Source: a virus. From it: a stretch of DNA of 64,000 bases. The position numbers and the translations under genes are program-made. The notes below the pieces were generated by a model, which was given only the letters and a program-made list of their open reading frames with translations, made no database searches and had not been told where the DNA came from. Below are positions 2,750 to 24,776 of this stretch, in pieces. Within the stretch, counting starts at the first letter, position 1; every line of letters starts with the position of its first letter. The stretch is taken from positions 96,001 through 160,000 of the IMG/VR virus record IMGVR_UViG_3300035158_000183; one strand, given 5' to 3'.

Positions 2750-2758
2750 AACTTATCC

Positions 2759-4009
2759 CTAAAAAGTAATGAACTGTATTCCGCGATACCGCCCTGAGGT
2801 TTCGAGGATTATCCTCTCGTTGTAAAGCGGCGAAAGCCATTCCCCAAATGTCAGTGTACGCACGCTGCCCTCACCGGTAGGAGAGGCCTTGTGCAGATAA
2901 ATCTCCTCGAACTTGTTGGGCCTATTGCGCCCAATCCTATATGCCAGAGGAGCTGCCTCCAGCATAGAATCTATTATGTTAACCATCTCGATATCTTCAC
3001 CGATGTCCAGGGCATTAATGACTTCTTCTACTGCCTCCCGCATCGCAACATAACCGAAGGCAATCTCCTCAGCCTTAGCACGAGGTGACCAGTTTACGGC
3101 TGCCACTAGCTCTAACCCTAGAGGTCTGGGAGCAGATATGAATGGCCGTATGCCATAGCCTGTTACTAGATTGACAGATTGTGTGACTTCACGTATCAGG
3201 TCAGGACTTACTGTCGGCGTGATACCCTTGATATATAACGCGAATGTACCTGGCCCTTGCTCGGCGTTTACCAGATAGACATCAGCCACACCTGGTATGG
3301 CTAGTGCTGCGAGCCTAATCGAAGCCATAACTGCCATTGTCCGAGAGCGGAACACATTAGATAGGCGGTATCGATATGATTCATCCTCTTCACGATCTAC
3401 ACCATTATCAATTGCGTATCTGTTTGTACACTTCAGCCGCTGAGTGTCCGAGAGCGTATAGGAATTAAAGCCATGTACATTCAATACGTTACGAGGCACA
3501 GAAGAATCTATACCCTCAAGGGCGGACCTGACAGGTGCATAAACAAAGCTGGTGTCGGCTTCGCCTGTAACCGGCACGAGGGTCGAATAGCTGACAACAG
3601 GCTGCTCGGCAATTCCTGGAGTAACAATCTCGCCAGAAAATGATTCCGTGGAGACGCTTGTGCCAGCTGGTATAGAGATGGCTGCGCCATTATTGATATC
3701 GCCAAATGTTCCCGAATCTACGTAGAACATCAAGTTGTCATCTTCAGCTATGGCGTGGGCAGCTTCCAGCCTAGGGACGTTCAACATATCGCCAAAGAAG
3801 TCTAGGAAGCGTCCCTCTGCGTAGTGGATGTAGGGCTGTAGTAGATTCTCGTCAAACAGTCTCTGCTGTTTCGCCTGCTCCCGAGCTGTGGTAGACAAGA
3901 AGAAGCGTGCCTTGCCGCCAGGTGCCATTTGATTAATGTTGGTGTCGCGGTCTAGGCGTTCCAGCGATTCGTTGATAATTTCTCTCTCTTCTCTAGGGAA
4001 AAATGGCAT
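2759..4009 (-). CDS. Baseplate J-like wedge protein
   Basis: AEGRFLDFFG, IPAGTSV, NGVDREEDESYRYRL and LAIPGVADV match baseplate J family motifs. Confidence 0.85.
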   Translation of the reverse strand: MPFFPREEREIINESLERLDRDTNINQMAPGGKARFFLSTTAREQAKQQRLFDENLLQPYIHYAEGRFLDFFGDMLNVPRLEAAHAIAEDDNLMFYVDSGTFGDINNGAAISIPAGTSVSTESFSGEIVTPGIAEQPVVSYSTLVPVTGEADTSFVYAPVRSALEGIDSSVPRNVLNVHGFNSYTLSDTQRLKCTNRYAIDNGVDREEDESYRYRLSNVFRSRTMAVMASIRLAALAIPGVADVYLVNAEQGPGTFALYIKGITPTVSPDLIREVTQSVNLVTGYGIRPFISAPRPLGLELVAAVNWSPRAKAEEIAFGYVAMREAVEEVINALDIGEDIEMVNIIDSMLEAAPLAYRIGRNRPNKFEEIYLHKASPTGEGSVRTLTFGEWLSPLYNERIILETSGRYRGIQFITF

Positions 4010-4013
4010 TATC

Positions 4014-4454
4014 CTACGCTCCTATGAAATATACGTTATTGTCCGAATAGTTATACAGGAAATGTCTAATAAGTACTTCGGAACTAGCATTTCTGGCTGT
4101 TGGGGCAACGCTTATTGAGGCCCGTACTAGTAATTTATCACGAGCCACAGGCATATACTGTAACTTTATGTCCTGTGTATGCACAAAGCCGTTCCGAGCA
4201 AAAGCAGCCGTAATACGAGTCTTGATTAGCTCTGCTGTCTGTTCATCATTAGGTTCTCCCACAAAATCTCTGAGATTGGCTCCGACATCCTCAAACACCC
4301 TCCAGTCACCCTGGTCGGCCTCTACCCGAGTCTTCATCTCCTGTAACAATGACCTGAGAGGATCGTGCTGGGTGTCCATGAGATCACCCTCGCTGATAAA
4401 ATAGTCTCCCCGGGATGTCCAGAGCATGTCTATCTTATCGTATATACGAGGCAT
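4014..4454 (-). CDS. Baseplate wedge/sheath initiator (gp25-like)
   Basis: 146 aa, GDW...DVGANLRDFVGEPN motif, immediately upstream of baseplate J. Confidence 0.7.
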   Translation of the reverse strand: MPRIYDKIDMLWTSRGDYFISEGDLMDTQHDPLRSLLQEMKTRVEADQGDWRVFEDVGANLRDFVGEPNDEQTAELIKTRITAAFARNGFVHTQDIKLQYMPVARDKLLVRASISVAPTARNASSEVLIRHFLYNYSDNNVYFIGA

Positions 4455-5257: not shown

Positions 5258-8200
5258 TTATAATTCGGCCTCTTCGAGCCCTCCTGTATCTCCCAAGAAG
5301 CCCCAGAAACTCTCTGATATATCCAGAGCAGCACCGAATAGCTCCTCGCCAATATCCAACTTATCCCAAGCTGTCTCGAGATCATCCCAGTACTGGTACC
5401 ACCTACCGTGTAGGCCCACAAATAATGAGGACCTGCCTGCTCCACAGGCCACACTAACAAATGGCTTACCACCAAGGGTCAGTGGGTTGGTTATTACCGG
5501 CACGGCGTCCTGAGTCCAGTTAATGATCTTCACTGCTGCAGTCATAGCCATAAGTGGCAGGGGGCTTGTGAGTGCTGTAAGGCTAACACCTGACTGTGGC
5601 TGGTCGAATCCGTAAGCATATGATAGTGCCTCGCAAGCTGTATCTATGGCCGCCTGGGCATAGAAGTCATTCACCACCACACACATGTCCGGTGTGATAA
5701 TGGATATAAAACCAAAGTCTCGGTTAAAAACTTGCTCTACGGCTTCCACCTCTATAGGGCCAATCATGTTAATGCTAGAATCATTAATGAGACATACATC
5801 ATATGGCTTAAGCTTCTCGTTGCCTGTTACAATCAACTCGCCCTGATATGCATCACGCAGATGACGCGCGAACAGGCCTTGTACATATCTCTTGGCCATG
5901 TCTACTGTTATACAGCTTGGGAACTCTTCCCTATACGACCGCAAATACTCGTCTGGAATATTCTCGTCCAGTTTGCAAGCAAGCACTCCGCTATCACTTC
6001 TCTGCAGTGCCTGCAGATTGTCAACGAGATCCTCAGCATCCTCTTCTTCCAGAAGATTATCATTGTCGAAATACAGAACCTCTACTTCATTCGGTACCCC
6101 ATTCCGGTTAGTGCGGATAGTGTTCTTCAGAATATGGTGAACCGAGTCAAAGTAATGGTAATTACGGAATGGCTTATATCGGCCGAACAGAGCACTGACT
6201 TGGGTTTCAACACTGTGTGCCGGTGCTGAGCTGGTAAGGGCGATGGCTATTGCATTAGCCATCTTAGGATTGGCGGCTGCTAGCTTACGCATACTGCTGC
6301 GAAACTCTTCATTTGGTATCAGCTTGGAGACCTCCAATCCTTTGAGGTGTCGTATGCCCCTAGTGGCGCTATCTGCCAAAAGCATTTCCATATCACTTGG
6401 CGGTCTTGACCAGTAGTGCTGGCCCTTGGCTCCGAAGAACATGGTCATACGCGGAGAGTGGCCATATGGTATAGCCAGCGCTGCATATCCAGGATGTCGC
6501 AGCTCATGCTCGCGGAATATTTCCCATGGTGTTTGCTTGATGGGCCTATATGCGCAAGCATTATCCCAATATTTCATCCAAGTAGTGGCATACACCTTAG
6601 GAGGGGGCGCGAAGATGTTATCATCCTGGGGCTCATTACGATGTGGATTCTTAAATAACTGGGATAGCGTTTCTCTGCGTCCCCATTCAGTGATAAGGCT
6701 TGCGGGGTTAAGTTGATATAGTATACTCTGGCCATGGCCACCCCTAAGCTTGTGGCGTATCTCGCTTGTTAGGAATCGGTTATAGTCGCTGCGGCGCCCA
6801 AAGTGTACGATACTGGGATGTAGAATAGCTCCCGACAACACTTCCTGAGACGAGTAAAACACTTTGCCATCGCTCAGTGGGCCCAGCTCCACACCCTCAA
6901 GCTCGGCACCATATCCCTGACACACGATCTCCAGGATCTTTCCATCTTCCGACGGAGCTATTTCTACAATACTACCCAAGAACACTGACTCTAGCAGATC
7001 TGGATTGGCTGCATATCCCAACCGAATCTGCACTTTAACTCCATCCTGAAGAATCATATTTTCAAATGGATTCTCCAGTTCAGTATCGGCGAATATTCCA
7101 GTGGCTCTTTCAGCATTAATACCATACTTCGCCTCGTGATCCTTGATGTATTGTGCCTTCTCACCCCAGCGTCGCCTCAGCAAAGTGTCCCCGATATTAG
7201 TGATGCGAATGATGGCAAGATCAGCCGCCACCTTACGAGAACGTATTATACGTATCTCCTGTACACAGGAGTATGAATAGAAGTCATCGAAGGCCCGAAC
7301 GACTCGACCGTTAACCTTAATATCCTCGTCAGCATCATCTTCGATGAAGTATATCTTGAAGGTAGGGAAAGCCCGCCTCATACTGAGATCATTCTTCTTA
7401 TTGCCTAGAGCTATACTAGTACCCAGTGCTGCTGTATTCTTAACCTTGCTGCCTTCACCGAACTTGCCCTTGGCCACATCATGGTCCAGCCCCTTCAGGA
7501 TTTCAGTTATGCCTCCAGCTCGTATCAGGTTAGCACGATTCTCCGCCTTCTGGTCAACTAATTTCTGTACGTCACCGATAGCTTCTACCGCCATTGCCAG
7601 TGGATTGATCCCTAGTTTACCAGCAAGACGTGTAACCCCACCAAGAAGTGCGAAATATTGGTCTTTCACCACACCCCAGGCACTTGGCTGTGCATCTGCA
7701 GCAGCCTGTACCTCTTCTTTATTGTTCCCAACAGTGTACGACCCATCAGATAATCGGGTAGCTCTAGGGCCCAGGTCTCCCCACTCCACGAAACCACCAG
7801 CCCTCTTAATCTCTTCCTTAGACTTCTGGGTCTGTTGACTATCTGGTGTACCTGACAACTTCTTGTCAGCTGTCTTATAATCTGGATTTGGCCCAAAGGA
7901 CAGAGCCCTCCAGTTCACGTCGTACATAGCCTCAATTAATTTCTCAGGCTCTGGCATTACGTCACTACTGTGCCATTCAAGTGGGCGGCCTGACTGAACA
8001 TATTCACTCATATGTGTCAGATTTTGCATAAAGTTGAACTGCGCTGTGGTGTAGTCAGTAGCTTTAAGCCCCGTACTGACAGTTTTGAACCATGCTGCAG
8101 GCCCTTTGGCCTGGTAGTCCGGGTCATCTGGACGGTAATATACGGGCTCCCATGCATTAGTACCTTCCTGCATCATCTGTTCGTAGTCTAAAAAGGTTAT

Positions 8201-11200
8201 CTCACCGGCTGCACGATCTACTCCAGCAAATTTCTCCAGATATATCTTCCTGCTCTCGAGTATGCGAGGTAAGTTGTATGACAGATACGAGCCACCCAGC
8301 ATGGTGTCATGAAGATATCGCTGGATAGATGCAACCTCATTGCGGACGTGACGGCGTAAGAAGGTTTCCATGTTATTCACATCGGTTAGAGCGGATACCA
8401 CTGAATCTTCTTTGGAGTCATCATATATATAGAACTCAGGCGGAAGCGGTATGGCAGGCAAGCGTTGCTGTGAGTCTGTGCCTTCAGAAACAAGGGGCAC
8501 CTCCGGCAGGTTCATATCTGCGTAACATTCACCCACCGCTAACGCTGTGGCTTCTAGCCTCTGCTGTCTGATACCTGGAAAGTAATTATCGAACCTCTCA
8601 TCTAAAACATGTGACTGTACCTGTCTGATTACGCGCTCCATACTGTTCAGCCACTTGTTAAACACTCTTGCATGCTCACGGTTGGTGGCCCAGGCACCAT
8701 TGGTACTAAACTTCCCATTATACATATCGTTCCATGTACCTACACGGTCATGTTTGACCCTAGTATAGTGAGAGCGTGGTGAGTCTAGTTCAGCCATCAT
8801 TTCCGCTTGAGCAGCAGGGCCCTTCTTGACTATTGCAGTACTAGGCTTGTCCTCATTAGGAATATTCTTAACTTGTCCAAATAATACCCCTTCTGCTCCC
8901 CAGGTGCGATATGCTGTCTCCCAAGTCTCGTTGCTATCAGGAGCAGTTTTCCAGACAACTGGCGGCATCTCATTCTGTGTTTTCTGACATATATCTGCGG
9001 CCTGAATCACTGCTTCTGCCAGCCAACCAGGGAAATATGGATCCTTTACTTTCCATGGCCTGCCATGACCTGCCACCCAGTACCCTTGTTCCTGCTTGAC
9101 CTGATTCTCATGCGCTACCTCGTAGAGCCGTGGCTCGATGATGCTAGGTTTAGGTATTATATTGCGGCGATCATCATCCTGTGGATCGTTAGATAGCTTC
9201 TTGGGCTTCTCAGACTTCAAGAACTTCATAATGCCAGAAACAATTTGTCGCTTAGCACTTATATCTGTAGGTATGTATCTATCAAGACGTTCTTCAGCGA
9301 AATCCTGGGTGATGAAGCTAACATTCATTTGGTGTTGGTCCACCGAACCTTCCACGCTTGATTCCTGTACATCTGTGACAACGATATCTCGTATGCTCAG
9401 AAGGGCCAAAATATTATTGGTCTCATCTGTGACAGGATGGCTTGACTCTACTCGCATAGAGCCAGCGTAGGGTATCATAGCATTGAACCTGCGAGCATTT
9501 TCCCTCGCGCGAAATATCATCTTCTTAAGGGCGTCAGCTCCCTCCCTGCCTTCTACACCTGTAAATGTGAACGACAAAGTACCGGTCTTATTGCCGGCTC
9601 CCAGGAACTGCCAGGTATATGTATCCTGACTCAATAACTTTATCGGTACTATCCTATGACCGAAAGTCACGGAGAGTCCGGAGAGTACCATGTTCTTGGC
9701 AAACACAGAATCTCGGTAATCATCTGGATTGCTAGATACGTATAGCTGTACATCCTTGGCAAATATATTCCGTAACTTAGGATCCTCGGAATAGTAATAC
9801 CAACCCTTGGCATTATAAGAAGCAATCCATTTGTTTCGTGCCTGCTGACTGCGCACATCCTTAGGTAATTCAGTGGGCTTGCCCGGGATAGCCTCAGACT
9901 TGGCCGCAGTACCCTCAGTGGGTTGGGGCCTAGGCTTCTTCTGCTCTTGTTGCTTGGTCTGCTCGGGCTTCTTCTCATTAGGGCCCTTGGAGACATCCAT
10001 ATGCTGTGTACGCTTGGCAAGCTTAGGTCTCACACCTATAGGCAGAGCCTGGAATATTTCGATTCCACTTTTCGTATTAGATGCTAAACGTGTTTTAGGC
10101 GGTCCGGCACGTTTGGACTTCTGGTCAACTGCCTGACAGTATATGGATATAATAGTCTTGTCAGCAGCATAGCCTATATGATGTACTCTAGTCAGCAACA
10201 TAACGTGCTTAGACCACACAATGCCAACAGGAATTCCGGCATCAATTACTTTCTGTATATTCTTAGCTGACTGGCCTGTCAGACGCAGCAGCCACCTCGC
10301 ATTATGCTGTGCAGCTCTAACAGTCTGCCTGCACCCGAAGTAGCCGAAACCCTTACCCTTCGCTCGTGCCTGAATTGGAACCTGATACCCAGCACGATGC
10401 AGGGTCTCGTAGAACATGATATTGCATTTCTCTTTATGCTCATAATGAACGGTCTCGCCAGTCTCTTTATCTGCCAAGTGTGGGCTTAGCTGTTTCCCTA
10501 ACTCAAGCTTACCTCTCTTCCTCCAGGGTTCCCTGTCCCACTTCCATAGTTCTTCTCTGGCCGATTGCCACGAGCGCTTACTGCGCTTTAAGAATACTGG
10601 CACCTCTTGTCCTGGTACAGATGCCTGCTTGGCAGCCTGCTGGGTGGCAGTCGTTATTTGCCCCTGGGAGTCAGTCTCGACCAATGGTGCATTGGTGGCG
10701 TTGTATATTGCTGCCGCTGAAGGGAATCCGTCCTGTTCCTTCAACACATCGGCTACCACACCTCGGCCAAGTTTTTGGGTCTTGTCTGGAGGATTGTGAT
10801 GCTCCAGCATCTGTAGAGTGAAACCTACAATATCGCTATTAGTTGTACCGACACCTGGAGTATTCTTCTGCATATGGTCTGCATAATACATCCATGCATC
10901 AGAAGCTCCAGGGAAATTTACTGGTACATTAGGTTCCTCGCCACGTAATGGCAGAAGACCTTCGCGAATATCATTGACCATCTTCTCAGCTTCATAATCC
11001 AAAGAGTGGGCCGATGCTTCATAGGAGGTCAGGTCCCCCAGTAGCAACTCACGTTCTGGAGTAGGTCGGCGTTTCGAGACATTTGGAAACGTAGTATTGT
11101 ACCAGAAATGATTACTAAATGGTTTGAAGTTAAAGTGATGTAGTGTCAGCGTCAGTATCAGCTGGCCAGGAGTAGCTGAATTAGATAAGGTGCCGGTCTC

Positions 11201-11728
11201 AAGAACAAATATCGTATTTATAGCTGGGCTAGAAACACCAAGTGATTTACGCACCTTACCGTTAAACACATATACTAGTGGATTGTGAGTAAGCTCAGCT
11301 ATCAAACGATGAAGCTTTACTGATTGCGCAGGACCCTCTGGGAAAACTAGTGTTATAGTAAGCACCATGTCTTGTAGGCCTTTGGTGGCCACTACCGGGG
11401 ACTCTGATCTAAGCGTTTCGGCTACGAATACATCATTGTGGGACTCGATCTGGATGGCATTCATTGGCACATCAGACAGCGTGATATCATTGAGCATCAG
11501 GAAGTCGTCAGCAAATTCACGGTATCCTAGCTCGGAGAGAAACTCCTGTTCCTGGAGAGCAGCCGTAGGTCTGATAGTCCTTGCCCGTGCTTCCTGGAAC
11601 TCTAACTCCAGCAGCTCTTTAGGCACAGGGATTGACTGACCTAGAGGGTCCGGTAGCTCCATCTCATCAGAGATTGGGTCTCCATGTTCATCTAGTACAG
11701 GTAACTCATCTGAGGTTTTTCTAGGCAT
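5258..11728 (-). CDS. Large baseplate hub/tail-associated protein with an internal Cys/His (NlpC/P60- or CHAP-like) domain
   Basis: 2156 aa; hub-like C-terminal motifs (VKVQIRLGY, VFLGSIVEI, GELIVTGNEKLKPYD); internal KCNIMFYETLHRAGY...KHVMLL. Confidence 0.65.
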   Translation of the reverse strand: MPRKTSDELPVLDEHGDPISDEMELPDPLGQSIPVPKELLELEFQEARARTIRPTAALQEQEFLSELGYREFADDFLMLNDITLSDVPMNAIQIESHNDVFVAETLRSESPVVATKGLQDMVLTITLVFPEGPAQSVKLHRLIAELTHNPLVYVFNGKVRKSLGVSSPAINTIFVLETGTLSNSATPGQLILTLTLHHFNFKPFSNHFWYNTTFPNVSKRRPTPERELLLGDLTSYEASAHSLDYEAEKMVNDIREGLLPLRGEEPNVPVNFPGASDAWMYYADHMQKNTPGVGTTNSDIVGFTLQMLEHHNPPDKTQKLGRGVVADVLKEQDGFPSAAAIYNATNAPLVETDSQGQITTATQQAAKQASVPGQEVPVFLKRSKRSWQSAREELWKWDREPWRKRGKLELGKQLSPHLADKETGETVHYEHKEKCNIMFYETLHRAGYQVPIQARAKGKGFGYFGCRQTVRAAQHNARWLLRLTGQSAKNIQKVIDAGIPVGIVWSKHVMLLTRVHHIGYAADKTIISIYCQAVDQKSKRAGPPKTRLASNTKSGIEIFQALPIGVRPKLAKRTQHMDVSKGPNEKKPEQTKQQEQKKPRPQPTEGTAAKSEAIPGKPTELPKDVRSQQARNKWIASYNAKGWYYYSEDPKLRNIFAKDVQLYVSSNPDDYRDSVFAKNMVLSGLSVTFGHRIVPIKLLSQDTYTWQFLGAGNKTGTLSFTFTGVEGREGADALKKMIFRARENARRFNAMIPYAGSMRVESSHPVTDETNNILALLSIRDIVVTDVQESSVEGSVDQHQMNVSFITQDFAEERLDRYIPTDISAKRQIVSGIMKFLKSEKPKKLSNDPQDDDRRNIIPKPSIIEPRLYEVAHENQVKQEQGYWVAGHGRPWKVKDPYFPGWLAEAVIQAADICQKTQNEMPPVVWKTAPDSNETWETAYRTWGAEGVLFGQVKNIPNEDKPSTAIVKKGPAAQAEMMAELDSPRSHYTRVKHDRVGTWNDMYNGKFSTNGAWATNREHARVFNKWLNSMERVIRQVQSHVLDERFDNYFPGIRQQRLEATALAVGECYADMNLPEVPLVSEGTDSQQRLPAIPLPPEFYIYDDSKEDSVVSALTDVNNMETFLRRHVRNEVASIQRYLHDTMLGGSYLSYNLPRILESRKIYLEKFAGVDRAAGEITFLDYEQMMQEGTNAWEPVYYRPDDPDYQAKGPAAWFKTVSTGLKATDYTTAQFNFMQNLTHMSEYVQSGRPLEWHSSDVMPEPEKLIEAMYDVNWRALSFGPNPDYKTADKKLSGTPDSQQTQKSKEEIKRAGGFVEWGDLGPRATRLSDGSYTVGNNKEEVQAAADAQPSAWGVVKDQYFALLGGVTRLAGKLGINPLAMAVEAIGDVQKLVDQKAENRANLIRAGGITEILKGLDHDVAKGKFGEGSKVKNTAALGTSIALGNKKNDLSMRRAFPTFKIYFIEDDADEDIKVNGRVVRAFDDFYSYSCVQEIRIIRSRKVAADLAIIRITNIGDTLLRRRWGEKAQYIKDHEAKYGINAERATGIFADTELENPFENMILQDGVKVQIRLGYAANPDLLESVFLGSIVEIAPSEDGKILEIVCQGYGAELEGVELGPLSDGKVFYSSQEVLSGAILHPSIVHFGRRSDYNRFLTSEIRHKLRGGHGQSILYQLNPASLITEWGRRETLSQLFKNPHRNEPQDDNIFAPPPKVYATTWMKYWDNACAYRPIKQTPWEIFREHELRHPGYAALAIPYGHSPRMTMFFGAKGQHYWSRPPSDMEMLLADSATRGIRHLKGLEVSKLIPNEEFRSSMRKLAAANPKMANAIAIALTSSAPAHSVETQVSALFGRYKPFRNYHYFDSVHHILKNTIRTNRNGVPNEVEVLYFDNDNLLEEEDAEDLVDNLQALQRSDSGVLACKLDENIPDEYLRSYREEFPSCITVDMAKRYVQGLFARHLRDAYQGELIVTGNEKLKPYDVCLINDSSINMIGPIEVEAVEQVFNRDFGFISIITPDMCVVVNDFYAQAAIDTACEALSYAYGFDQPQSGVSLTALTSPLPLMAMTAAVKIINWTQDAVPVITNPLTLGGKPFVSVACGAGRSSLFVGLHGRWYQYWDDLETAWDKLDIGEELFGAALDISESFWGFLGDTGGLEEAEL

Positions 11729-11734: not shown

Positions 11735-14700
11735 CTACAACCTCTCATGGATTCTATTAGCCAGACGTTGCGGACTCAAGGCCTCTCGGTTGTCTACTGT
11801 TCTAATCCGGGTCCGACCGCCTAAGTCTCCAGCTTGTCTCATGAAATTCTGGCCCATCTGGTTCGCATCAGGTGTAGGTATTCTAATACTAGCACGAGAT
11901 GCGGATCTCATTCCACTCATGTCGTACACCTTAGGCGACTGCATTATCCTTGCTGTTGGAGGACTCATACCCTGTCCGGCTGCAGGACCAATATAGTCGT
12001 CCCCCAGGTTCCTGCCACCAGCTGCTCCCTCTTTCGGTGCCGACAGCGAACCAGATACTGATGGGGCTGCTAGCATTACGCCGGCCGCCAGACTAGCCCC
12101 TATCATCAGTGGGGCTCTGGCATGGCGCAAAGCCCCGAAGACAGCTGAAGTTCTAGTCTTAGCCATACGCAAGGCCCTGGTGGCATTTTCGGTGAGGCTC
12201 GGCTGCCCGTAAGCTTGTCGCTGCATGACTGCTTGTGCCACATCGAGGGAACCCGTACGACGCTTGTAATACATGTGTATTAAGGTATTTAAGTCATCTG
12301 GCACGCGGCCTTTGGCCAACTGTGCTTCCTTGACAGCAACGTCTACATCTGCACCAACTGCACGTACACCACTTATGATGTCTTCCGCAGCCTGTCTGGG
12401 GCTGAATTTCAGTGTTCTAGCACCCTCCCGACCGGTCACAGGATTAGTGATGCTACCAGATACTACACGATCTTCTTCGCCCATTATTCTCTTCAGCACA
12501 CTCTCCATCCCACTTGCATCTTGTTGCTGTATAGCATGGGCAATATCTTGATACATCTGACTCTGGTAGGCTCCGTGCTTACCACCAATAGCGGCTTCTT
12601 CTAGGTGCCAGAACAATTCAGCCATTGGACGATACTTCTCTGGAGCTGCGTACTGTAGGCCCAGTTTGGCTTTCTGTAAAGCTATATTAACCTGCGGGGT
12701 GGCTATTTTGGCTGTTGTGAGGTTCGCAGCTCCCTGCATCATAGCCTCACGTCTTGTCATTTCAGCGATACCCTTAACCCCTCCAAGCTTTGCTGCCTGG
12801 CTCTTGATCAGATCTTTCATAGCATAATGATTGAATAAATAGCTGGTATATCCTTCAGCAATTTCACTATCCATCTTGCGGGTTAGTCTGTTAAAGGTGT
12901 CTCTGTCTGATATAGCAGCTATAGAAAACGCATCTTTATCAAAATCACCTTTCATACCTACCATGGGAGATATATCTACTTGGCGTTGTACGCCACCAAT
13001 AGTCAATGACCCCTCTTGGTATGGTGAGGCTATTAGCTCGTCTGCTAGATTCCGGTCTACCTGAAACCGCGCGAATTGGAAACTCTCTGGTCCGGTGAGA
13101 GGGTGGCGCCAGACACCCGCAACCACAGCCTGATTCTTCTTTAGCAACATTTCTTTCTGGAACTTCAATAGCTCTCGCTGGTCATCCGTCTTGGCATTCT
13201 CCAGCAACTCATCCATCATTCTCTGGGCGGTGCGTGGGGAGACACGGAAAGCTCCAGCAGCTTGGGCTGTCTGTTCCGCAGTTTGTCGGACACCTGTCAG
13301 ATACCTGGTTCCCAACAGCTTGCCTTTAGCAATGGTTGCCTGGCGCTCTGTGGCAGCTACAACCTTGCTCCGTAATGAGGCAGCTGCGGCCTCAATTTCT
13401 TCTGTAGCCGCCCCTCTAGCTAGCTGATAGCGTAAATTTTGTAGTTCCTGCATAACATCCGTATCAATCATACGGCCGCCCTGAGCACGGAACTGCTGCA
13501 TAAGCTCTGGGGCTTCCTCAAAACCTGGCACATATAGCCGCTTGGCGCCCCCTAAAGCTTCTATATCCTGGCCTAACGGGACATACCTTCCTTGTGCTCT
13601 CCGCAAGTCTTCTTGGGTCATCTGTGCCAGTGTTTTCTCAGCAGTAGGTATATCCCCAGTCCATCGTTCGACAAGGCCTTCTTCACCCAGCACAGTGCCC
13701 ATCATACGATTAGCTGCTACTAAGTCAGTTTTGCCATAGGCTCGAGTACCCAGCTCTGCTGCCAATGCTTGGCCCTCCGCACCCTTCATGGCTAACAAGC
13801 GCATGCCAGCTTGCTCAATTGTAGCCATGCCACCTGCACCACCTTCAGCTGCTAGATCACCCAGACGACCCTTCATAAGCCCCATCACACCAGTGGAGTC
13901 TGCCACTGCCTGACCAATGCCGAGGCTATCTGCTACACCCTGATCCATCAGACCGAAAGTGAGGCCCATCTCTTCAGCAGTAAACCCAAAACGCTTGGCT
14001 GTTCTTGTCATACGCCGCTGCAGATCGAATACAGCACGGTCAGCAGTTGCTGCGTTCAGGCTACTGACTCCCATGATACGAGCTGGATCCTCTAAAAAGC
14101 TTCGGGCCACAGCCTCGCTTCCAGCCAGTGTGCCGGCATCTATCTTGCCAGCGGTTATGAGAGACATAGCCTCCATCTGCTGAGTCAGCTGGGCCATTAG
14201 GTTACGTTGGACCAGCTTGCCAGACCACATAGCCTGCACGGCCTGTCCGCCTATCTCTGTAGGTGCGCCGGCTACCCCGAGCATGCCAGCTAATTCTTTC
14301 TGCGTTTGAGCCCTACCCATGAACTTAATATCTTCACTGAAAAATTTCCACCACTTATCTCGACCTATGCGGTGCCGTTCGCGTACGTACACCGTAGCGG
14401 CATGATCGTCCGTAAGTTCGGCTGCAATAACTTCAGCAGCTTCCCCGCCTGCTTGAGCCTCTGCCCATAGCGGTGCGCCAGTGTGGCGCTCAACTCCTAT
14501 AAACCCTTCTTGTCCTATAGGAGTAGCGAATTCTCGCACTTCTCCGATGCGAGCACCCTTAAGCTTAGCCAGTATCTCTTCATTCACCCTGAGGCCTTCT
14601 CGTAGGTTTATCTTCTTTGCTACAACACGCTCATACTCCATCATATCGGCTGCTTGCTCTGCGATAAGTCCCTCTTCCAGGAACATTCTCTTGTTCAGTT

Positions 14701-16228
14701 CCTCAGCGAGAAAGTTTCCTTCGACCATTCCTCTCTGTAGGGCCTGCTTCTCGTTAGCAGTCTTGGCATAGAACGTTACTAGCTGAGGAGCAGTATAAGC
14801 CTCGGCTGCCGTAGCCGCATGTCCACCGTGTACCATTCTCTGATAGGCTGGGCCCTGAATCTTGCGTTCTAACCGGCTATAGTATTCGCCAAAAGTACCA
14901 GCGAATGGTGTGGCCTTAGCCTTAGCTTCCGCCGTGACACCCCACTCTCCCCTAATAAACTGGAAAGGTTGTTGTTCAGTACCCACTAAACGGCCTAGTG
15001 GGCCATATAGCTCTTCGGCAGGTGTCATACGCTCGTGCACGCCTGCCATAAATACACCTCTGGCTACGGGATCCGGACCGCCAACAGGCCACAACTGCCG
15101 TCCGCCTGCTGCAGCTTCCTCCACCATCTTTCCGCGTAATTCTTCAGTCATTTTGCCTGCATACACTGCTTGCTGGCCCAACATCCGTGCTCTAGCCCTG
15201 CCTCCAGAAGGCAGCACTGCTTCAGGCAAGGACCAAACTGCCATTGCTCTGTGTGATGCGTCCCGGTCATGAAGAGCTTCTATGATTCGATGATTTATCT
15301 CAATTACTGTGTTCTTAACACCTGTAGTGGTCTTCTGTCTGGATATGGCGTTGGCCAGAAGATCTACGTACTCATCAGCATAGTTGCGTATAGCTCCTGT
15401 CTCACCATAGGCACGCCGGGTTCTATATCTGGCTGTGAGTCGCTGTCCGCCATAGGCCATCCCTGCACCCTCTAGCGGAATATTTATAGCTTCTCTTCCG
15501 ATAGCCGCTCTTAGTACAGGAACTTCAGCAAACTTACCGCCACCTAGTGCTTCCCGGACCATCTCCACACCACGCCAGTCTATCTCCCCGCCAGCTTTGC
15601 GCATAGCTTCATCCAGCCTCTCCTGTATGGCCACGGCTTTGGGAAAGTCTTGAATAGGTTTTACTGGTCTGTCAATGGTCGTGCCCACAAACTCGCCCGG
15701 TGATATGGCTGCCTCCGCTCTGGCCGCCCATGGAGTGCGTCCGCCTAGAGTGGGATCTGCTGTTAGAGACCGCAGGCGCCCAGCAAAGACATCAGCATCA
15801 CCCAGCAAATCCTGAATCTCAGCAGCAGCTTGCCCATAAGCCTTCTTGTATGTAGACTGGCCCATGATATTTTGGAAAGCTGTGTAAGCTTCCTCTTCAC
15901 TATAACGGCCACCTGCCATAATAGCTTCATAGGCGGCAGCGGCTATATCATGCTGCAGCACCTTGCCGCCTGGGCCAATCTTGGATAGCTCGTGAATAGC
16001 CAGATCTGATGTGTCCACCGTGCTCTTGATGGTGCGTTGCAGGTTGAACCCACCCATACCAGGTACTCTTGCCGCTACTTCGCCAGCAATATCTCTGGGC
16101 ATTGTAGTGAAAAGACCCCTGAGAGCGGGATGGGCCCGGTACAAACCTACGCCAGCACCTCCCAGCAGAGCTGCACCTGCAGTAAACCCCCAGAGTGGTG
16201 AACGTTCTTGATAATTGTTATCTGGCAT
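11735..16228 (-). CDS. Putative virion-packaged single-chain RNA polymerase (double-psi beta-barrel type)
   Basis: 1497 aa; GVWRHP (RHP at 13100-13108) followed by MKGDFDKD (DFDKD at 12932-12946), resembling the R.P...DFDGD catalytic barrel; hydrophobic Gly/Ala segments near both termini. Confidence 0.55.
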   Translation of the reverse strand: MPDNNYQERSPLWGFTAGAALLGGAGVGLYRAHPALRGLFTTMPRDIAGEVAARVPGMGGFNLQRTIKSTVDTSDLAIHELSKIGPGGKVLQHDIAAAAYEAIMAGGRYSEEEAYTAFQNIMGQSTYKKAYGQAAAEIQDLLGDADVFAGRLRSLTADPTLGGRTPWAARAEAAISPGEFVGTTIDRPVKPIQDFPKAVAIQERLDEAMRKAGGEIDWRGVEMVREALGGGKFAEVPVLRAAIGREAINIPLEGAGMAYGGQRLTARYRTRRAYGETGAIRNYADEYVDLLANAISRQKTTTGVKNTVIEINHRIIEALHDRDASHRAMAVWSLPEAVLPSGGRARARMLGQQAVYAGKMTEELRGKMVEEAAAGGRQLWPVGGPDPVARGVFMAGVHERMTPAEELYGPLGRLVGTEQQPFQFIRGEWGVTAEAKAKATPFAGTFGEYYSRLERKIQGPAYQRMVHGGHAATAAEAYTAPQLVTFYAKTANEKQALQRGMVEGNFLAEELNKRMFLEEGLIAEQAADMMEYERVVAKKINLREGLRVNEEILAKLKGARIGEVREFATPIGQEGFIGVERHTGAPLWAEAQAGGEAAEVIAAELTDDHAATVYVRERHRIGRDKWWKFFSEDIKFMGRAQTQKELAGMLGVAGAPTEIGGQAVQAMWSGKLVQRNLMAQLTQQMEAMSLITAGKIDAGTLAGSEAVARSFLEDPARIMGVSSLNAATADRAVFDLQRRMTRTAKRFGFTAEEMGLTFGLMDQGVADSLGIGQAVADSTGVMGLMKGRLGDLAAEGGAGGMATIEQAGMRLLAMKGAEGQALAAELGTRAYGKTDLVAANRMMGTVLGEEGLVERWTGDIPTAEKTLAQMTQEDLRRAQGRYVPLGQDIEALGGAKRLYVPGFEEAPELMQQFRAQGGRMIDTDVMQELQNLRYQLARGAATEEIEAAAASLRSKVVAATERQATIAKGKLLGTRYLTGVRQTAEQTAQAAGAFRVSPRTAQRMMDELLENAKTDDQRELLKFQKEMLLKKNQAVVAGVWRHPLTGPESFQFARFQVDRNLADELIASPYQEGSLTIGGVQRQVDISPMVGMKGDFDKDAFSIAAISDRDTFNRLTRKMDSEIAEGYTSYLFNHYAMKDLIKSQAAKLGGVKGIAEMTRREAMMQGAANLTTAKIATPQVNIALQKAKLGLQYAAPEKYRPMAELFWHLEEAAIGGKHGAYQSQMYQDIAHAIQQQDASGMESVLKRIMGEEDRVVSGSITNPVTGREGARTLKFSPRQAAEDIISGVRAVGADVDVAVKEAQLAKGRVPDDLNTLIHMYYKRRTGSLDVAQAVMQRQAYGQPSLTENATRALRMAKTRTSAVFGALRHARAPLMIGASLAAGVMLAAPSVSGSLSAPKEGAAGGRNLGDDYIGPAAGQGMSPPTARIMQSPKVYDMSGMRSASRASIRIPTPDANQMGQNFMRQAGDLGGRTRIRTVDNREALSPQRLANRIHERL

Positions 16229-19200
16229 TACCTAACTCCCATCCTCTTGTGGGTTTCTCGCACTAATTCATCTCTAGAGTCAACGATTTCAATATCATAC
16301 TCATCCGGTCCTTTAGTAGCCAGACCACACCGCATCACCCTGCTGCCACTACCTCCATGGACCTTGGCTAGTGTTTCAGCATTCAGCTTGTGTATCATAA
16401 CATCTTCTAGCTCAGCACGGGCTTGCATATCTCGTATAAGGTCTTCATTAATATACGGTTTTCTAGCTAGGGCTCGCTTCCGAGCACCCCAAAGATCGAA
16501 CTCATGATGGTCGAGTCCGGCCATCTGCACATACTGAAGCTTAACATCCTCCATATCAACTGATGGACTATTATGATAGATTCCAATTGGAGAACAATAC
16601 ATGTGCTGGTCTTCAACTTCAAAATCGAGCACCGTGCCTTCGTATTGGGATCTTTCAATGGTCTCTACTCGATAAGCTATAAAGTTTTCACCTACTATAG
16701 CTGAAAGAGAAGAGCTAAGTGACTCTACTGCATATTGGGCTTTACCATTTCTCTTCTTTGGCCCATGCAAACTAGCAGGAATACCTTGTGCCTCATATAG
16801 CCGTTTGGCCATATAGCATAATTGTCTATTAGCAAGAATAAGTCTCCCCCGCTCATCTTTAGAAGCATCCCCTGTATTAAGGCCATCTAATAAAGCTGCT
16901 TGGCTCTTCTGAGTAATATTCTCTAACCAAGAAGGAGAATATTTTTGATCACAATATCTACCTACCCAATGATTAATAAGCCAACCGAAAATACTATTTG
17001 CTACTACTAAATATGCGCTTTCACTCTTAGGCTTCTTCTTAAATCTGATGATGCTATCTAATCCAAATTTATCTTTAATGATTTTTTGAGCTAATTCTAG
17101 AATTGGGACTTCATCTATATGCGCTGTAAACTGTACTCCTCTCATTCTGTCTCCAACAGCCCATGTGTTCCCTCCTGCTAAGTAATAGCCAATTAACCAA
17201 CAAGTAGCTTCATCTAATTTGATAAATCTATTGATTGGTTTAATTCTTCCTGTCTTCGGACGTAAAGTATCATCAAGTATCAGAGTATTGTTTGGAAAAC
17301 AATTAAGCTTACCAATATCTATTACTGGATCTTCATCAGTATGTTTTAGTAAAGGAATAGGCAAGTACGTATTTGTTGTAAGTTTACCTATAGGCATCCA
17401 TTTAGCAGAATAAGATTCATAATGCTTTGTAGTACAGAAATTACATTTCCACATTGTTGTTGCATGCGTGCATACAGATTCAGGCTTTAAATTGTATTTG
17501 CATCGTTCAGTCTGAATCCCAAGCACAATATGATTCTCTGTTGCTGCCATACAATAAACACTGTTGTGATGAGTTTTAACAATTATAATATCTTCATTTG
17601 TCTGTCTCTCAAAAACTTGTTTCACTTGGTTTTCTCCTTGCAAGGTAGTTAAAGACTGATCTAATTTTACGTCACTTGCATGGAGAATTCTACCATCTGA
17701 TGTTAAGATATCTTGTTTCGGAGGAACACACCACCCTAGCCAGTCTGCGCCTGGCAAGGAGTGGGTTTTGAAGTATTCCTTAGCCTTAAGTTCGCGTATC
17801 CATTCATCAAATGGGATCTTTCCATCTGTCTCGGCTCGCCACTGCTCTTCCATCTCCGGTGTGGCCCCGAAGCCTTCGGTCTTGCGCATAAGAGCAGTCG
17901 TAATTAGTGTCTGCTCATCTTCCTTGGTGGCTATACCCGCCTGCTCCTTAGCTCTAGCAGCTCCTGCTTCCTGTTGTAACCACTTGGACATATACAGCCG
18001 TTGTTCATTCTCAGGTATCAGGGACAGTATCTCCTCGCGCTCTTCTGGTGATCTGGCACCTGTGAAAGCAGCAAAGAAGTCACGCTCTCTGCGCGGCAAG
18101 GCCCTCATAGCAGCCACTGGTGACCCGAAGACGTCCAGCCCGAACATGGTCCGCTGCTGGAGTTCCTGTTCCTCCCTCACATCTGACCACCTATTATTGT
18201 GGCGCGCAATACGTTCTGCACGCTCTGCCTTCACCCAATCCAGCATATCGAAATATTCATTAATGTCACGACGTTGGCGAATTTGTTCAGGAATTCTGTT
18301 GAAACCTATAGCGTGTAGTGCCATGTCGGCTGCTGGCTGTAGAAAGTTCTCCACAGGACGATTCCAAAATGCTGCCTGGGTGCCAATAGCCTCTGAAGCT
18401 ATGTACTCCTCAATGGCTGATCGTTGTCTGATAAGCTTGGATGCCGGAGACATAGGCGTTAGATACTCCATAGGGGTCTCAATACCATGCAAGATAGTCT
18501 CGCTCATGCGTCCAGCCAAACGCTCAGCAGGAGTAAATCTTAGCTGCTCGAATTCATCGCGTAGCTCCTTGGCCTCGGCATACTTCTGCTCCGCCAGGAC
18601 TTGCCCGTAGTCCTGGTCGCCCATCATGGCTACAGCCTTCATGCGGCTGCCGCGCTTGGTCACATCATAGCGGCGGGACTCCATCTGAGGAGCCTTGATA
18701 GTAATCTTCTGCCCCTCAAAGTGCTCAGTGGCGAAGTCCATTGCCTTCTGCATGTTGGTGATGGCGCCCACGCCCTGCAGCTCGATAACCATGTCGCCGA
18801 ATTCTGCTGCCTTGATACGACGTGGATCTAAGACCTCTGTGACGGTGATATCCCTGGTGCCTAGTAGCTCTGGTCTGAAGCGATACTCAGTTATCTTGCG
18901 GCGCTGCTTCCTGGACTTGACCTGTTCCTCAACAGTTCTGACTAGCTGCTTATCTTGATCCGATAGCCTACCAAAGTTTCGCTTAGCCTTCTGTAGCGTC
19001 CACTTATATTCGTCTGACCACATAGCCACATCGCCCAGGATTTTAAGGCGGTGGACGAGTGGATACTCCTCTGGGTGGACCCCAGCTACCTCAGGATGCA
19101 GAGCCTCGTACCCAGGACCCGGCAGTCTGATTTCAGCTTCCTTGATCTTCTGGAATGGATTGCCATACTTCAGATCTAAGAAGTAGTCTTCGGGCATCCA

Positions 19201-22200
19201 GGACGGCATGGTATTCTTTAGAGGGTTATAGGTCTCAAGATAGCTTCTGGTGCGCGGAATAAAACGTCTCACTGGCTCCGAGTTGTGCAGAAGTAAATAA
19301 TCCCCAACAAAACAATGAGACTCTTCAACTTCTATATCAAAAACTTTAACTCCCGTGGCAGGCTCGGCTTTTACATTTCTAACTGAGTAATATAAAAACC
19401 CATCCTGAGTAAACTGCCTACCATTAGAGTGTTCGAAACTTTCTTCCCAATCATTGTCGAGAATAATGCGGCAATATCTATCATGTTGGTCTTTGCTAAA
19501 CTTAAGATAGGATCTAAGAGTTGGCTTGCGTTGTTCGCCCTGCGGATATTGATTGTTAGGTTTGGGAATTTCCAAGTAGTCATCTGTCACTGTGGCAAAT
19601 ACACCAAGTCTTGCCAGGACAATCCAAAGATCTCGCACTAGCCGATTAGACTTACTAGTAAACCCTCCTGAGTATTTCTCTTTATTACTCCACCCATCGC
19701 CACCAATTAAACCAGCAATTAGCTTAGGCAATAAAGAGATGGGCAGATCAATAAGCCACGCCAATTTCTTAGTGCCGGCATCGGTGCCGAATTGCTTAAG
19801 CCATCGTGCTAAAGGAATATTGTGTAGCCTTAAAGCACAACTTCCTTGTTCGGGTTTCGTAGATATGTTATAGCTAAATCCAAATCTGGCTGTGTATATT
19901 TCGCCCAAAATATGAGCTATATCCAGCTCTTCTAAAGCAAGAGTAAAAGTAATATCTCCAGCCTGTGGGTCAGCACTACCCTCAGCAATCCACCACCCCA
20001 CAAACCAAGCAAGATCACGACCGAATACAACCTTACGTGGAGTTCTTTTGGGAGAGTGCTTTTTCCGGTATGAATTTAATGCTTCCTTCGCATATTGATC
20101 GGGAACGATTTCTCTTAAATCTTTCCGAGACATAAGGGGATTATTCTCTAGTGCTTCTATAGCTTTGGCAAAATGTTTAGTGGCCCTAGAATAGATATAG
20201 TCGTCTGTCACCGTTGCTGTAGAAGCAGCGTAGGGACCAAAATCTATAGATATATCTTCGGAAGTAATACCACCGGGCAGCGGCATTACCACAAAATCAT
20301 TTGGCTCAATAGCATCAGCTCGAACCCATTGCCACGCAATCTCTGTGTCACACAATCCACAAACACTGCAATGTTTCTTAGGGCTATGTGGGGTGCATGG
20401 TCTGGCATGACTATCTCTACAGGGAATACGTTTATAAACAGCAACAGGGTGATTCCCCGTAACTCTTACCGTCTTATTACCAACCCTGGTATTGATAGTA
20501 ATCATCTGTTCGTCGGAGCCGCAGATCCTTTCAAAAACATTAAGTACTTGCTTTGTCTTCATACGGTGATCATAAACAGCATCACCTACTTGAATATCCT
20601 CGATGTTCTTCAGGCCATCCGGAGTAAAAACCTTCTCTCCGGCAGGTAAGCATGCACCTAGCGCACCACCCACATTGAGATGGCTCCATAGCCAGTACTC
20701 AGATCCGGTCTCCTTGCCCATGACGCCTAATGTTTGTAGGTTCTGGAAGAACTCCTCCCTACCCGTCATGGCATGCTCAATAGCTCCCTCAGCAAAACCG
20801 ACAAGACCTACAGCCTCACGTCTGCGGTACATAAGCTCGTTGAACAACTGGCTACCTTCTTCGGGTACTACCGGCGCTCCAGGACGCAAGCCCCCAAGCT
20901 CATACGCTGGCTCGGTTTCCTTGCGGACATCCGGTCGATGTACATACTCTCCCTCATCTAGCATCCATTCCTCAGGACGTATTAGCTTGCGAGGCTTGAG
21001 AGCTTTGCCCACTGTTGCCGCAACAAGAGGACCGAAAAATGGTACATCTTTACCGTAAGTGCCTGCAAGCGGGGCCGGCCGCTCATACTGATATTTTCTT
21101 TCGTAGTGGTACTTCCACTCGTCTGACCCGAACAGGGCCTTTAATGGATGGAGCCATGGGTCGTGTTCCCACTTCTCTTCTTCAGTACCATACATGCCCT
21201 TCTGGAATGCTCTGGTCCGCAACCTCTCCATGAAGTGAGGGCGGTAGTATTCTATGCGGCCACCCTCGTAAGGAGTAGAATTGTGCACCAAGAATGTACC
21301 CGCCTGGAATAGATGATCCGGGTGATCTACTTCGAAGTCATAGACAATATCATCATAATCTTCTGTTTCTATCGCGCAAATAACAGAGTAAAGTTTAGAA
21401 TTACAAACTTTATAGAAATATGGAATCCTACCTGGAGTCCACTTGATCCTATGCCTCCCCCTATAATCATTCTTCTCAAACTTACAAAGATAAGGATATT
21501 CTCCTAAGTTTAACAATATAGAGAATATTGCATCAAGAAGCCCTCGTCTACAAGAAGAGATAACACAGGTTCTTTGATCTAGATGTCCATCTCCACGCCG
21601 ATAACCCTCAACCAATTGTTCTTTAAAAGCTTTTGGTGCAGACATAAATACTTGTGGAAATATTTTGTCTTGTTGGCGCTCGCTATTATAAAACAGCTCA
21701 AAGAACATTCTGGCAAGCAAAGAACTGCAGATCCTTACGACCCAACAGCCTTCGTTTGTTTTCTTCTTGCCTTTCTTAAACCTTACTGTTGGTGTAATGC
21801 CAAATTCTTTCTCAGATATAGAGACAACATCATCAACTATCCATCGTTCTGATTTAGCGTGAACAGTTTCTATCATGTGGGGAATATCATTCTTATAAGA
21901 AATATTGCCTTCTGCTAAGAAGTAACCGAATAGACGGCCTAGTTCTGGTGTTAATGTTACAACTCTAGGGATTGAAGCCCCCCTAGATCTTTGAACCTTG
22001 CCACTATACCAATTCTTCTGTGCGGGGAGAAGAATATCTTCACAGATTAAGAAAAGACCAGTCTTTATCAAATCTTCAGAAATAAGCTCAGTTGATGTTT
22101 CCTTTAGCTGTGGGATAGGTATCTCTACTCTGTCGTTTACTCGAAGCCCTTTCGCTTCTACTTCAACAATTTCTTCTCCTCTAAGAACCGGAACCTTATG

Positions 22201-24060: not shown

Positions 24061-24773
24061 CTGCCTCGGCGATACATTTTGCGCTTAAATTCCAGCTCTT
24101 GCTGTCTGGCACGCTGGATAGCTTCTTCTCTAATCTTCTGCATACGTGCTCTACCCTCAGGATCTTCGTCGGCCGGCCTATCAAACTCTTGATATGCTTC
24201 GGTATCTTGCCTAAGCACATCTTCTACCAGATATGGCTTCTCCACCTCATCCTCAGGCTTCTGAAATGCATGTTCTTCTTCTATTATACCGCGATCTAAC
24301 AGGACTTTCTCGGCTTGGATGAAGTTATAGACTAGCTGTTGATAGTTGAGGCTGTCCAGAGATTCGAATGTATATCCAGCAAATACAATGCAGATTACAC
24401 GCTTCATGTAATCGGCAGTAACATTCAGCTGTTTCCGGTAGGTCTTGTATAGCTCTTCGGTATAATCTTGAGAATCAACATCTACACCTGACAAAAACAG
24501 TGCAAGCCTGGCAGTGGTCTCTGAGATGCCTGCCGGTAACTGATTGAAATTCTTCTCAGTTTGCCACTCATTCTCGACTATCTGCTCGAAGATACTATCA
24601 TATATAGCACTTTTCAGGCTAACCTTGGGGGCCATATCCAGAAGCAAGGCATATTGGCTGGCCTGCTTTATAGATGGCAGACGGAAGATAACCTCTACAC
24701 CCTCTACTTCGAAGGCATACAGGTCTTCGGATTTCTTCTGGATTGCCTCCAGGGCCCGCGTGAGACCATCCAT
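24057..24773 (-). CDS. Putative tail assembly chaperone
   Basis: 238 aa; VIFRLPS...LPAGISETTA, similar to the upstream neighbour; between tube genes and the tape-measure-like gene. Confidence 0.55.
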   Translation of the reverse strand: MDGLTRALEAIQKKSEDLYAFEVEGVEVIFRLPSIKQASQYALLLDMAPKVSLKSAIYDSIFEQIVENEWQTEKNFNQLPAGISETTARLALFLSGVDVDSQDYTEELYKTYRKQLNVTADYMKRVICIVFAGYTFESLDSLNYQQLVYNFIQAEKVLLDRGIIEEEHAFQKPEDEVEKPYLVEDVLRQDTEAYQEFDRPADEDPEGRARMQKIREEAIQRARQQELEFKRKMYRRGR

Positions 24774-24776
24774 CGG

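Follow-up and report, generated by a model that had tools for sequence, protein, structure and literature searches.

A predicted single-chain two-barrel RNA polymerase encoded in the tail module of a contractile-tailed phage

Virion-borne RNA polymerases and the locus under study

RNA polymerases (RNAPs) of the cellular type that are delivered by the virion occur in phiKZ-like jumbo phages, where they are multisubunit, in crAss-like podoviruses (gp66), and in one lineage of Thermus siphoviruses (gp96). The gene considered here lies in the tail region of a virus represented by the 174,034-bp IMG/VR virus record IMGVR_UViG_3300035158_000183 (estimated to be 91% complete), of which the stretch from position 96,001 to 160,000 was analysed (64,000 nucleotides [nt], hereafter the window, to which positions refer unless another genome is named). 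It occupies 11735–16228 on the minus strand in the open reading frame (ORF) list, and its translation of 1,497 amino acids (aa) is predicted to be a single-chain two-barrel RNA-polymerase-like protein.

In Thermus phage P23-45, the virion RNAP gp96 is a two-barrel enzyme fused to the tail tape measure, and the same is found in P74-26, G20c, and TSP4 (PMC10770324; PDB 8H2M/8H2N). This siphovirus fusion protein of 5,002 aa carries a DFDGD loop, has a flat, clamp-less shape, and is encoded beside a paralogous non-virion RNAP. P23-45 gp64 and P74-26 gp62 (PDB 8F72, 8F5M) are compact single-chain early-gene products of around 600 aa, which are absent from virions. The virion RNAP of the Cellulophaga crAss-like phage phi14:2, gp66 (PDB 6VR4), is a 2,180-aa head/cargo protein of a podovirus that is packaged and injected; as an earlier note on this DNA had stated, it has a DFDID loop, with which it is active (bioRxiv 10.1101/2020.03.07.982082), and therefore a residue other than glycine at loop position four is compatible with activity. 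Transcription of the first genes has been shown experimentally for both gp96 (PMC10770324) and gp66 (bioRxiv 10.1101/2020.03.07.982082).

P23-45 gp96 is the closest functional analogue of the 1,497-aa protein and the only published precedent found for an RNAP in the tape measure slot. Both are single-chain two-barrel proteins from the tape-measure region of a tail operon with membrane-type segments in the same protein, and a role in transcribing the first-entering genes is proposed here for the 1,497-aa protein as it is known for gp96. Unlike gp96, however, the protein is the product of a separate gene in a contractile-tailed phage, possesses a DFDKD loop and a predicted clamp-like connector, and has no second RNAP found alongside it; at 1,497 aa, it is not a tape measure fusion of the gp96 type. 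With gp66, which falls in the broad QDE-1 clade, it shares the presence of both barrels in one chain and the non-glycine residue at loop position four. It is nevertheless not a crAss-like virion RNAP, a class defined by homology to gp66 and a crAss-like podovirus genome: no PDB-profile or PHROG match to it was found, and the genome, with its genes for a tail sheath and baseplate, is that of a myovirus. Searches of BFVD gave only weak crAss-like matches (E 0.02–0.03), and 6VR4 is absent among the structural matches listed, which is not evidence of different folds.

Predicted structure of the two-barrel core

A template-free AlphaFold2 model of residues 540–1300, built on the family alignment described below, has a mean predicted local distance difference test (pLDDT) score of 90.1 and a predicted template modelling (pTM) score of 0.84. 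The first double-psi beta-barrel, which is beta-like (DPBB-B; residues ~564–640; 14309–14539, minus strand), is defined by model strands and structural alignments, with K628 and K635 placed on adjacent strands. The second, beta'-like barrel (DPBB-A; residues 1035–1105; 12914–13126, minus strand) spans model strands 496–566 at pLDDT >90; R1041 closes its first strand, and the loop bearing the aspartates is flanked by a short helix and the final strand. The earlier note had made its reading depend on a double-psi beta-barrel at around residues 1040–1110, and one is indeed predicted there with high confidence. The further barrel to which it assigned an upstream lysine motif corresponds to the predicted first barrel, which aligns with single-chain polymerases.

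The barrels are separated by a connector of about 400 residues (641–1034; 13127–14308, minus strand), the C-terminal half of which is predicted to be clamp-like from alignments to Rpb1 and beta'. On the model, those alignments begin at residue ~310, and on the matched chains at residue ~11–26, in the N-terminal clamp part, whereas the single-chain polymerases QDE-1, RDR2, and gp62/gp64 align from model residues 78–81, which is the first barrel; this is the pattern expected of a beta–beta' fusion. ESM Atlas clusters with fused Rpb2_6 and Rpb1_2 align from model residues 18–24, and isolated DPBB domains align to residues 434–580 of the model. Beyond the second barrel, a long-helix module (residues 1109–1250; 12479–12904, minus strand; model helices 570–608, 620–655, and 657–679) is a candidate bridge-helix and trigger-loop region. 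Its helices 1109–1147, 1159–1194, and 1196–1218 hold the invariant E1210 and the nearly invariant K1217 (57/59), and alignments to QDE-1 and Rpb1 continue to the model end.

Structural searches with the model returned two-barrel RNAPs. Foldseek against the PDB gave 86 matches at E≤1e-3, with bacterial RNAP beta' chains in all 50 best rows. In a VIA-align search of 48,161 chains, ranks 1–12 were held by two-barrel RNAPs only, including QDE-1 (Z 11.7), maize RDR2 (10.8), human Pol I (10.0), and P74-26 gp62 (9.8), together with archaeal A', Pol II, Pol IV, vaccinia, mycobacterial beta', Pol III, and African swine fever virus (ASFV) chains; isolated double-psi barrels, phiKZ and AR9 subunits, and P23-45 gp96 (Z 6.8) followed below rank 12. 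A second structural comparison placed QDE-1 at Z 12.0 over 298 residues. In the ESM Atlas, RNAPs filled all 10 rows, and the top three clusters, two of them viral, carry Rpb2_6 and Rpb1_2 in one chain (template modelling [TM] score 0.46–0.50 over 425–475 residues). Overall, QDE-1 (Neurospora/Thielavia) and plant RDR2 are the best matches, at Z 11.4–12.0 over 298–368 residues from the first barrel to the model end, followed by P23-45 gp64 and P74-26 gp62 at Z 9.8–10.0 (root mean square deviation 3.8–3.9, ~257 residues, both barrels); gp96 matches over 249 residues, again with both barrels.

The ranking of QDE-1 and RDR2 raises the prospect of a two-barrel nucleotidyl transferase with a different template or product, such as an RNA-dependent RNA polymerase, a primer-synthesising enzyme, or a PolD-like DNA polymerase. 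Both top matches copy RNA or single-stranded DNA (ssDNA), one ESM Atlas row is labelled as an RNA-dependent RNA polymerase, and two-barrel cores occur also in PolD (PMC10770324). QDE-1 and RDR2 are, however, eukaryotic RNA-silencing enzymes with a DYDGD/DLDGD-type loop, only 8%–10% identity to the 1,497-aa protein, and no tail-module context, whereas, among the single-chain phage proteins related to the QDE-1 clade, those examined experimentally (phi14:2 gp66, P23-45 gp64, and gp96) are DNA-dependent RNAPs. PolD chains are not among the top structural matches, and the phage has a DnaE-type replicase of its own, identified by its PHP-type DLDID motif only. The invariant arginine of the RxP motif is, by motif analogy with the Escherichia coli beta' sequence NRAPTLH, a putative counterpart of a residue that recognises the ribose 2'-OH. 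A function of this kind is considered very unlikely.

N-terminal to the core lies an alpha/beta module (residues 195–540; 14609–15646, minus strand) that may correspond to the N-terminal lobes seen in subunits of the beta/Rpb2 type. The model of the N-terminal 575 residues has a pLDDT of 83.8 and found no Foldseek match at E≤1e-3; the sole long alignments obtained for the module are weak ones to second-largest RNAP subunits, namely vaccinia Rpo132 (Z 6.3 over 243 residues), Xanthomonas beta (Z 5.5 over 256 residues), plastid PEP beta, NRPD2, and the AR9 beta-like subunit. Together, residues ~195–1300 form compact alpha/beta enzyme domains in the models, unlike the mostly alpha-helical ruler of a tape measure protein.

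A divergent family with invariant catalytic residues

A word-indexed protein search yielded 55 relatives and an exhaustive HMMER search of 1.84 billion representatives 68; there are around 70 metagenomic relatives (as clusters at 50% identity). Nearly all full-length relatives are 1,430–1,545 aa long and stem from contigs of metagenomic origin, the largest of them ~198 kb. Fused forms of 2,621–5,000 aa were not found among them, which is weak evidence, and every locus examined has a separate ORF of the 1,497-aa type. No description of this family was found in the literature searched, and the supplementary tables of PMC10770324 have no DFDKD, DFDRD, or DHDQD entry and none for ME3 or Acinetobacter.

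An alignment of 59 members, in which identity falls to 16%, has only ten invariant columns: G578, K628, Q683, G759, P901, R1041, D1095, D1097, D1099, and E1210. Lysine is found at K635 in 57 of the 59 and arginine in the other two, and K1217 varies in the same way. The catalytic barrel opens with the RxP motif R1041-H-P (13100–13108, minus strand; WRHP is residues 1040–1043), in which R1041 is present in 59/59, P1043 in 58/59, and the nearby S1049 also in 58/59. Around 54 residues after this arginine comes the DFDKD sequence D1095–D1099 (12932–12946, minus strand), the predicted Mg-binding catalytic loop, with all three aspartates in 59/59 and variation at positions two and four. The basic-residue motif of the first barrel, DKWWKFFSEDIK (residues 624–635; 14324–14359, minus strand), lies where the earlier note had located it, in an upstream beta-rich segment, and supplies K628 (59/59) and K635 from adjacent strands. 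An RxP arginine, an aspartate triad, and two upstream basic residues constitute the signature of two-barrel RNAPs (PMC7824862, PMC10770324). The strings quoted in the earlier note, namely VVAGVWRHP...ISPMVGMKGDFDKDAFSI and DKWWKFFSEDIK, with WRHP and GDFDKD, are all present in the translation, which contains WRHPLTGPES...GDFDKD and WKFFSEDIK. The motifs are conserved far beyond chance, and the conservation of the aspartates in homologues, on which that note had staked its proposal beforehand, is complete in the 59 aligned members.

The same note had drawn attention to the loop, in which three aspartates are kept and lysine replaces glycine. This is correct for the 1,497-aa protein but does not extend to the family as a whole. 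Across the 59 members, position four is K in 13, R in 13, A in 13, G in nine, and N in four, with D, L, and Q making up the variants seen; position two may be F, Y, L, T, M, H, K, V, or I. In the 39 closest relatives, position four is K, R, N, or L and never G, and the nine members with glycine are distant ones. Lysine at position four was considered as a family-defining trait and ruled out, being typical of nearer relatives only.

A non-glycine residue at position four in most members would be consistent with a protein that retains the polymerase fold as a relic and serves mechanically, in assembly, as a channel, or in DNA delivery, in the manner of an ejection or tape-measure-like protein. 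What survives at 16% identity, however, is the catalytic set itself (three aspartates, the RxP arginine, and the two barrel lysines), the loss of which would be expected in a relic, and phi14:2 gp66 is active despite its own non-glycine loop. Moreover, about 1,100 residues are predicted confidently as a compact globular enzyme and not as a helical ruler. Such strict conservation of exactly the catalytic residues disfavours the inactive relic that the earlier note had offered as its alternative, and a purely structural role is judged very unlikely; retained catalysis is probable on the predicted fold and the conserved residues.

Sequence searches gave no significant link to any described RNAP family. 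Pfam contained no family for the 1,497-aa protein at E≤0.1, RNA_pol_Rpb1_2 (PF00623) and RNA_pol_Rpb2_6 (PF00562) included; PHROGs gave no family either, and tblastn against 50,697 phage records gave no match. The 59-sequence profile recovered no polymerase from all PDB sequences, its only hit being a spurious EF-hand kinase (E 0.026). With hhalign, the family showed no similarity to P23-45 gp64, and against residues 1–1200 of P23-45 gp96, the DFDxD loop alone was aligned (E 0.14).

A fixed slot in the tail module

The leftward operon starts with the large terminase, the portal (with an intein-like insertion), the major capsid protein, the sheath, and three tube-like genes, and runs onward through two chaperone-position genes, the 2,610-aa gene, the 1,497-aa gene, the 2,156-aa gene, and the baseplate genes. 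From sheath to baseplate, this arrangement recurs in those IMG/VR loci that are long enough to cover it (most of L001–L011) and in a relative of 19% identity. The start ATG of the 1,497-aa gene overlaps the stop of the upstream 2,610-codon ORF (TAATG), and the downstream 2,156-codon ORF begins 6 nt past its stop; translation of the three genes is therefore coupled.

The upstream partner (16228–24060, minus strand), which, rather than the 1,497-aa gene, directly follows the chaperone-position genes, as a tape measure gene would, is an intein-interrupted orthologue of Bacillus phage 0305phi8-36 gp145 and ME3 gp35. Its family hidden Markov model (HMM) scores 300 bits against gp145, a virion protein, and 268 bits against ME3_35. 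The downstream partner (5258–11728, minus strand) is a baseplate hub or tail lysin that matches PHROG 20474 ‘endolysin’ at 8e-39; its family HMM recognises two proteins with a baseplate hub annotation, 0305phi8-36 gp147 (91 bits) and ME3_37 (88 bits), and the copy in a distant relative carries Peptidase_M23. Homology of the two flanks to gp145 and to the hub gp147 thus bears out the position beside the hub, in a tail module, that the earlier note had described.

Since its neighbours are orthologues of gp145 and gp147, the 1,497-aa gene occupies the slot of 0305phi8-36 gp146, a protein of 2,537 aa annotated as ‘hypothetical tape measure protein; identified as virion protein by mass spectrometry’. 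The two proteins share this slot and a weak C-terminal resemblance. The family profile found no match anywhere in the 0305phi8-36 genome, gp146 included, and gp146 is without a DxDxD motif; the evidence for presence in the virion therefore transfers via position and the weak C-terminal resemblance only. 0305phi8-36 has a YonO-like RNAP elsewhere in its genome (PMC7824862). Occupancy of the slot of a tape measure protein that lacks DxDxD, along with hydrophobic segments at both ends of the 1,497-aa protein, is also what the structural role weighed above would predict.

A cultured phage carries a member of the family. Gene product gp36 of Acinetobacter phage vB_AbaM_ME3 (AND75197.1, ‘hypothetical protein’; 1,603 aa; 19173–23984, plus strand, of locus L017, KU935715) is a true family member: the profile detects it at E 6e-11 and hhalign at E 3e-5, a Foldseek search of BFVD matches the model to an ME3 protein at E 5e-8, and gp36 keeps the aligned motifs LKFFSVGSK, SREP, and GGDHDQD, the last containing a DHDQD loop. 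Synteny is identical, with gp36 between gp35 and the hub gp37. ME3, a jumbo phage of 235 kb, was placed by a jumbo-phage survey in a group characterised by RNAP absence (PMC7824862).

An active two-barrel RNAP could also remain unpackaged and work inside the infected cell, for instance on late genes. The fold and the catalytic conservation would be the same as for a packaged enzyme, and the model is structurally nearer to the non-virion P74-26 gp62 and P23-45 gp64 (Z 9.8–10) than to the virion gp96 (Z 6.8). A fixed, translationally coupled slot between two virion or tail genes, maintained as far as ME3, speaks against this, as do the conserved hydrophobic segment and the tape-measure-like tail, which have no obvious cytoplasmic use. 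This alternative is regarded as unlikely.

Hydrophobic segments and the C-terminal tail

Hydrophobic segments near both ends, which the earlier note had reported, are present in unequal strength. The Gly/Ala-rich segment at residues 12–30 (16139–16195, minus strand) is weak, with a Kyte-Doolittle mean of 1.27 and a low-confidence helix in the model, and the corresponding segment passes 1.4 in some relatives only. The membrane-type segment at residues 1374–1392 (12053–12109, minus strand) reaches 1.70; a segment at this location, ~105–130 residues from the C-terminus, passes 1.4 in most of the 59 members, and those that fail the cut-off are nearly all among the most distant relatives.

The protein ends in a conserved tail (11738–11821, minus strand) with a strand–DxR–helix layout, defined by family conservation and finishing in ...LANxIHERL. 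This tail shows weak similarity to the C-terminus of the giant protein encoded upstream (hhalign P 0.0056), as do the last ~150 residues to the end of gp146 from 0305phi8-36 (hhalign P 0.0039; HMM domain 11.5 bits). A weak strand-D-x-R-helix pattern is visible in all three C-termini (IRTVDNREAL / IEIVDSRDEL / ISDDRSTF), at 11738–11821 and 16231–16300 (both minus strand) of the window and at 24000–24237 (plus strand) of the 0305phi8-36 locus L020. The common pattern may be a docking signal for proteins of the tail lumen.

Other polymerases, promoters, and gene arms

No match to Rpb1_2, Rpb2_6, or sigma-70 region 2 was found in the genome by searches whose positive controls worked for these three, and none to a T7-type RNAP in a search that had no positive control; a paralogue of the 1,497-aa gene was not found either. 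In ORFs of at least 300 aa, the only other DxDxD motifs are the PHP-type DLDID and one in a 1,638-aa ORF. This ORF (49250–54166, minus strand) has a DNA-polymerase-exonuclease-like PHROG match plus a Cas4/RecB-like match. The 1,497-aa protein is thus the sole RNAP recognised in the genome, which would suit an unpackaged enzyme as well as a packaged one; an enzyme made only together with late structural genes cannot, however, launch its own expression programme.

Two gene arms diverge at an AT-rich non-coding gap of ~730 bp (57780–58512). The rightward arm begins, from 58.5 kb, with a run of small genes (58480–59620, plus strand), each of which has a GCCC-N4-GGGC hairpin in front that abuts the ribosome-binding site, and two of which also have T-arm-like GGTTCGAATCC / GGTTCGACACC elements in front. 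ARAGORN found no tRNA at 57–64 kb. A sigma-70 consensus scan of 57.3–61.7 kb gave fewer sites than shuffles and no consensus promoter in the intergenic region before the first rightward gene; both results depend on a consensus that may not apply in the host and are uninformative.

Proposed mechanism

The favoured interpretation is that the 1,497-aa protein is an active single-chain two-barrel DNA-dependent RNAP that is packaged, ejected, and transcribes the first genes, a chain of events that as a whole is judged somewhat more likely than not. Its parts differ in strength. Polymerase identity is well supported by the predicted fold and the motifs, and the fold assignment alone is far more secure than the full chain; fold and conservation of the aspartates and lysines together uphold the single-chain RNAP in a tail module that the earlier note had proposed. 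Virion packaging, injection, and early-gene transcription we infer from gene position and the analogy with P23-45 gp96.

One polypeptide would supply both halves of the active site. The beta-like barrel would contribute the basic residues K628 and K635, and the beta'-like barrel the RxP motif together with D1095/D1097/D1099, by which the catalytic Mg2+ would be bound; the barrels would be joined by a clamp-like connector and followed by the long-helix module. The protein would be expressed late, alongside the tail genes, and be assembled into the virion by a tape-measure-type C-terminal module consisting of the hydrophobic segment and the conserved tail. Upon infection, it would be ejected with the DNA and then transcribe the first entering phage genes, with the rightward small-gene cluster from 58.5 kb as the most likely target.

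Several points weigh against this mechanism. There is no significant sequence link to described RNAP families, and homology rests on predicted structure plus motifs. Residues 195–538 match beta/Rpb2-type subunits only weakly, with Z 4.2–6.3 for the sole long alignments. The proven virion protein of the slot, 0305phi8-36 gp146, has no DxDxD motif. A folded polymerase of ~1,300 residues with a clamp-like part must unfold, or be unusually flat, to exit through the tail tube. Finally, a simple exact 11-mer count revealed no repeated promoter-like motif, only coding repeats.

A more far-reaching and tentative version can be formulated, in which the tape-measure-slot protein of a widespread lineage of large contractile-tailed phages (those with a 0305phi8-36-like module, including ME3) has given up its ruler and become a complete RNAP of the cellular type. 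A tape-measure-type C-terminal module would keep the enzyme within or at the tail lumen. After ejection, its hydrophobic end segments would anchor it in the membrane at the pore through which the DNA enters, and, as the sole polymerase, it would transcribe and so perhaps help to pull in the incoming genome end. This version is possible but doubtful.

Inteins and further candidate polymerases

The upstream gp145-like gene is 2,610 aa long here versus 1,379–1,393 aa in intein-free relatives, and relatives of 1,554–1,779 aa appear to hold one insertion. Pfam recognises Intein_splicing (three stretches), LAGLIDADG_3 (two), and Hint modules within it. Inteins are unusual in a structural protein of the tail or virion, and their presence suggests highly conserved sites in the gp145-like protein, which may be enzymatic or essential. 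The portal gene (38881–42138, minus strand; 1,085 aa) matches ribonucleotide reductase (RNR), thymidylate synthase, and PhoH PHROGs at residues ~338–690; these matches cover only segments of intein-type appearance, and the insertion is probably another intein.

The Microcystis phage MaMV-DC (KF356199; locus L021) encodes two giant proteins that bear the signature [RK]xP...DxDGD. ORF82L (3,560 aa; 16652–27334, minus strand) contains RSP...GDFDGD at residues 2477–2541, and ORF65L (1,677 aa; 1–4257, minus strand) contains RTP...GDADGD. In the structural search of BFVD with the model, a chunk of a MaMV-DC protein ranks third (E 6e-6), and the family profile gave no match in the MaMV-DC genome. Ma-LMM01-like cyanophages may thus encode one or two unannotated two-barrel RNAPs.

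Significance

The family described here would add a further group of virion-delivered cellular-type RNAPs, unseen by sequence searches, whose gene stands alone in the tape-measure region of phages with contractile tails. The start of transcription in such phages, which apparently have neither an RNAP nor a sigma factor, would thereby be explained, and surveys that class ME3-like phages as RNAP-less would undercount phage polymerases. The variation at loop positions two and four bears on the tolerance of the Mg-binding loop. As ME3 is cultured, the idea is directly testable, and, if it is true, tail-borne two-barrel RNAPs would be a common strategy and not a curiosity of Thermus phages.

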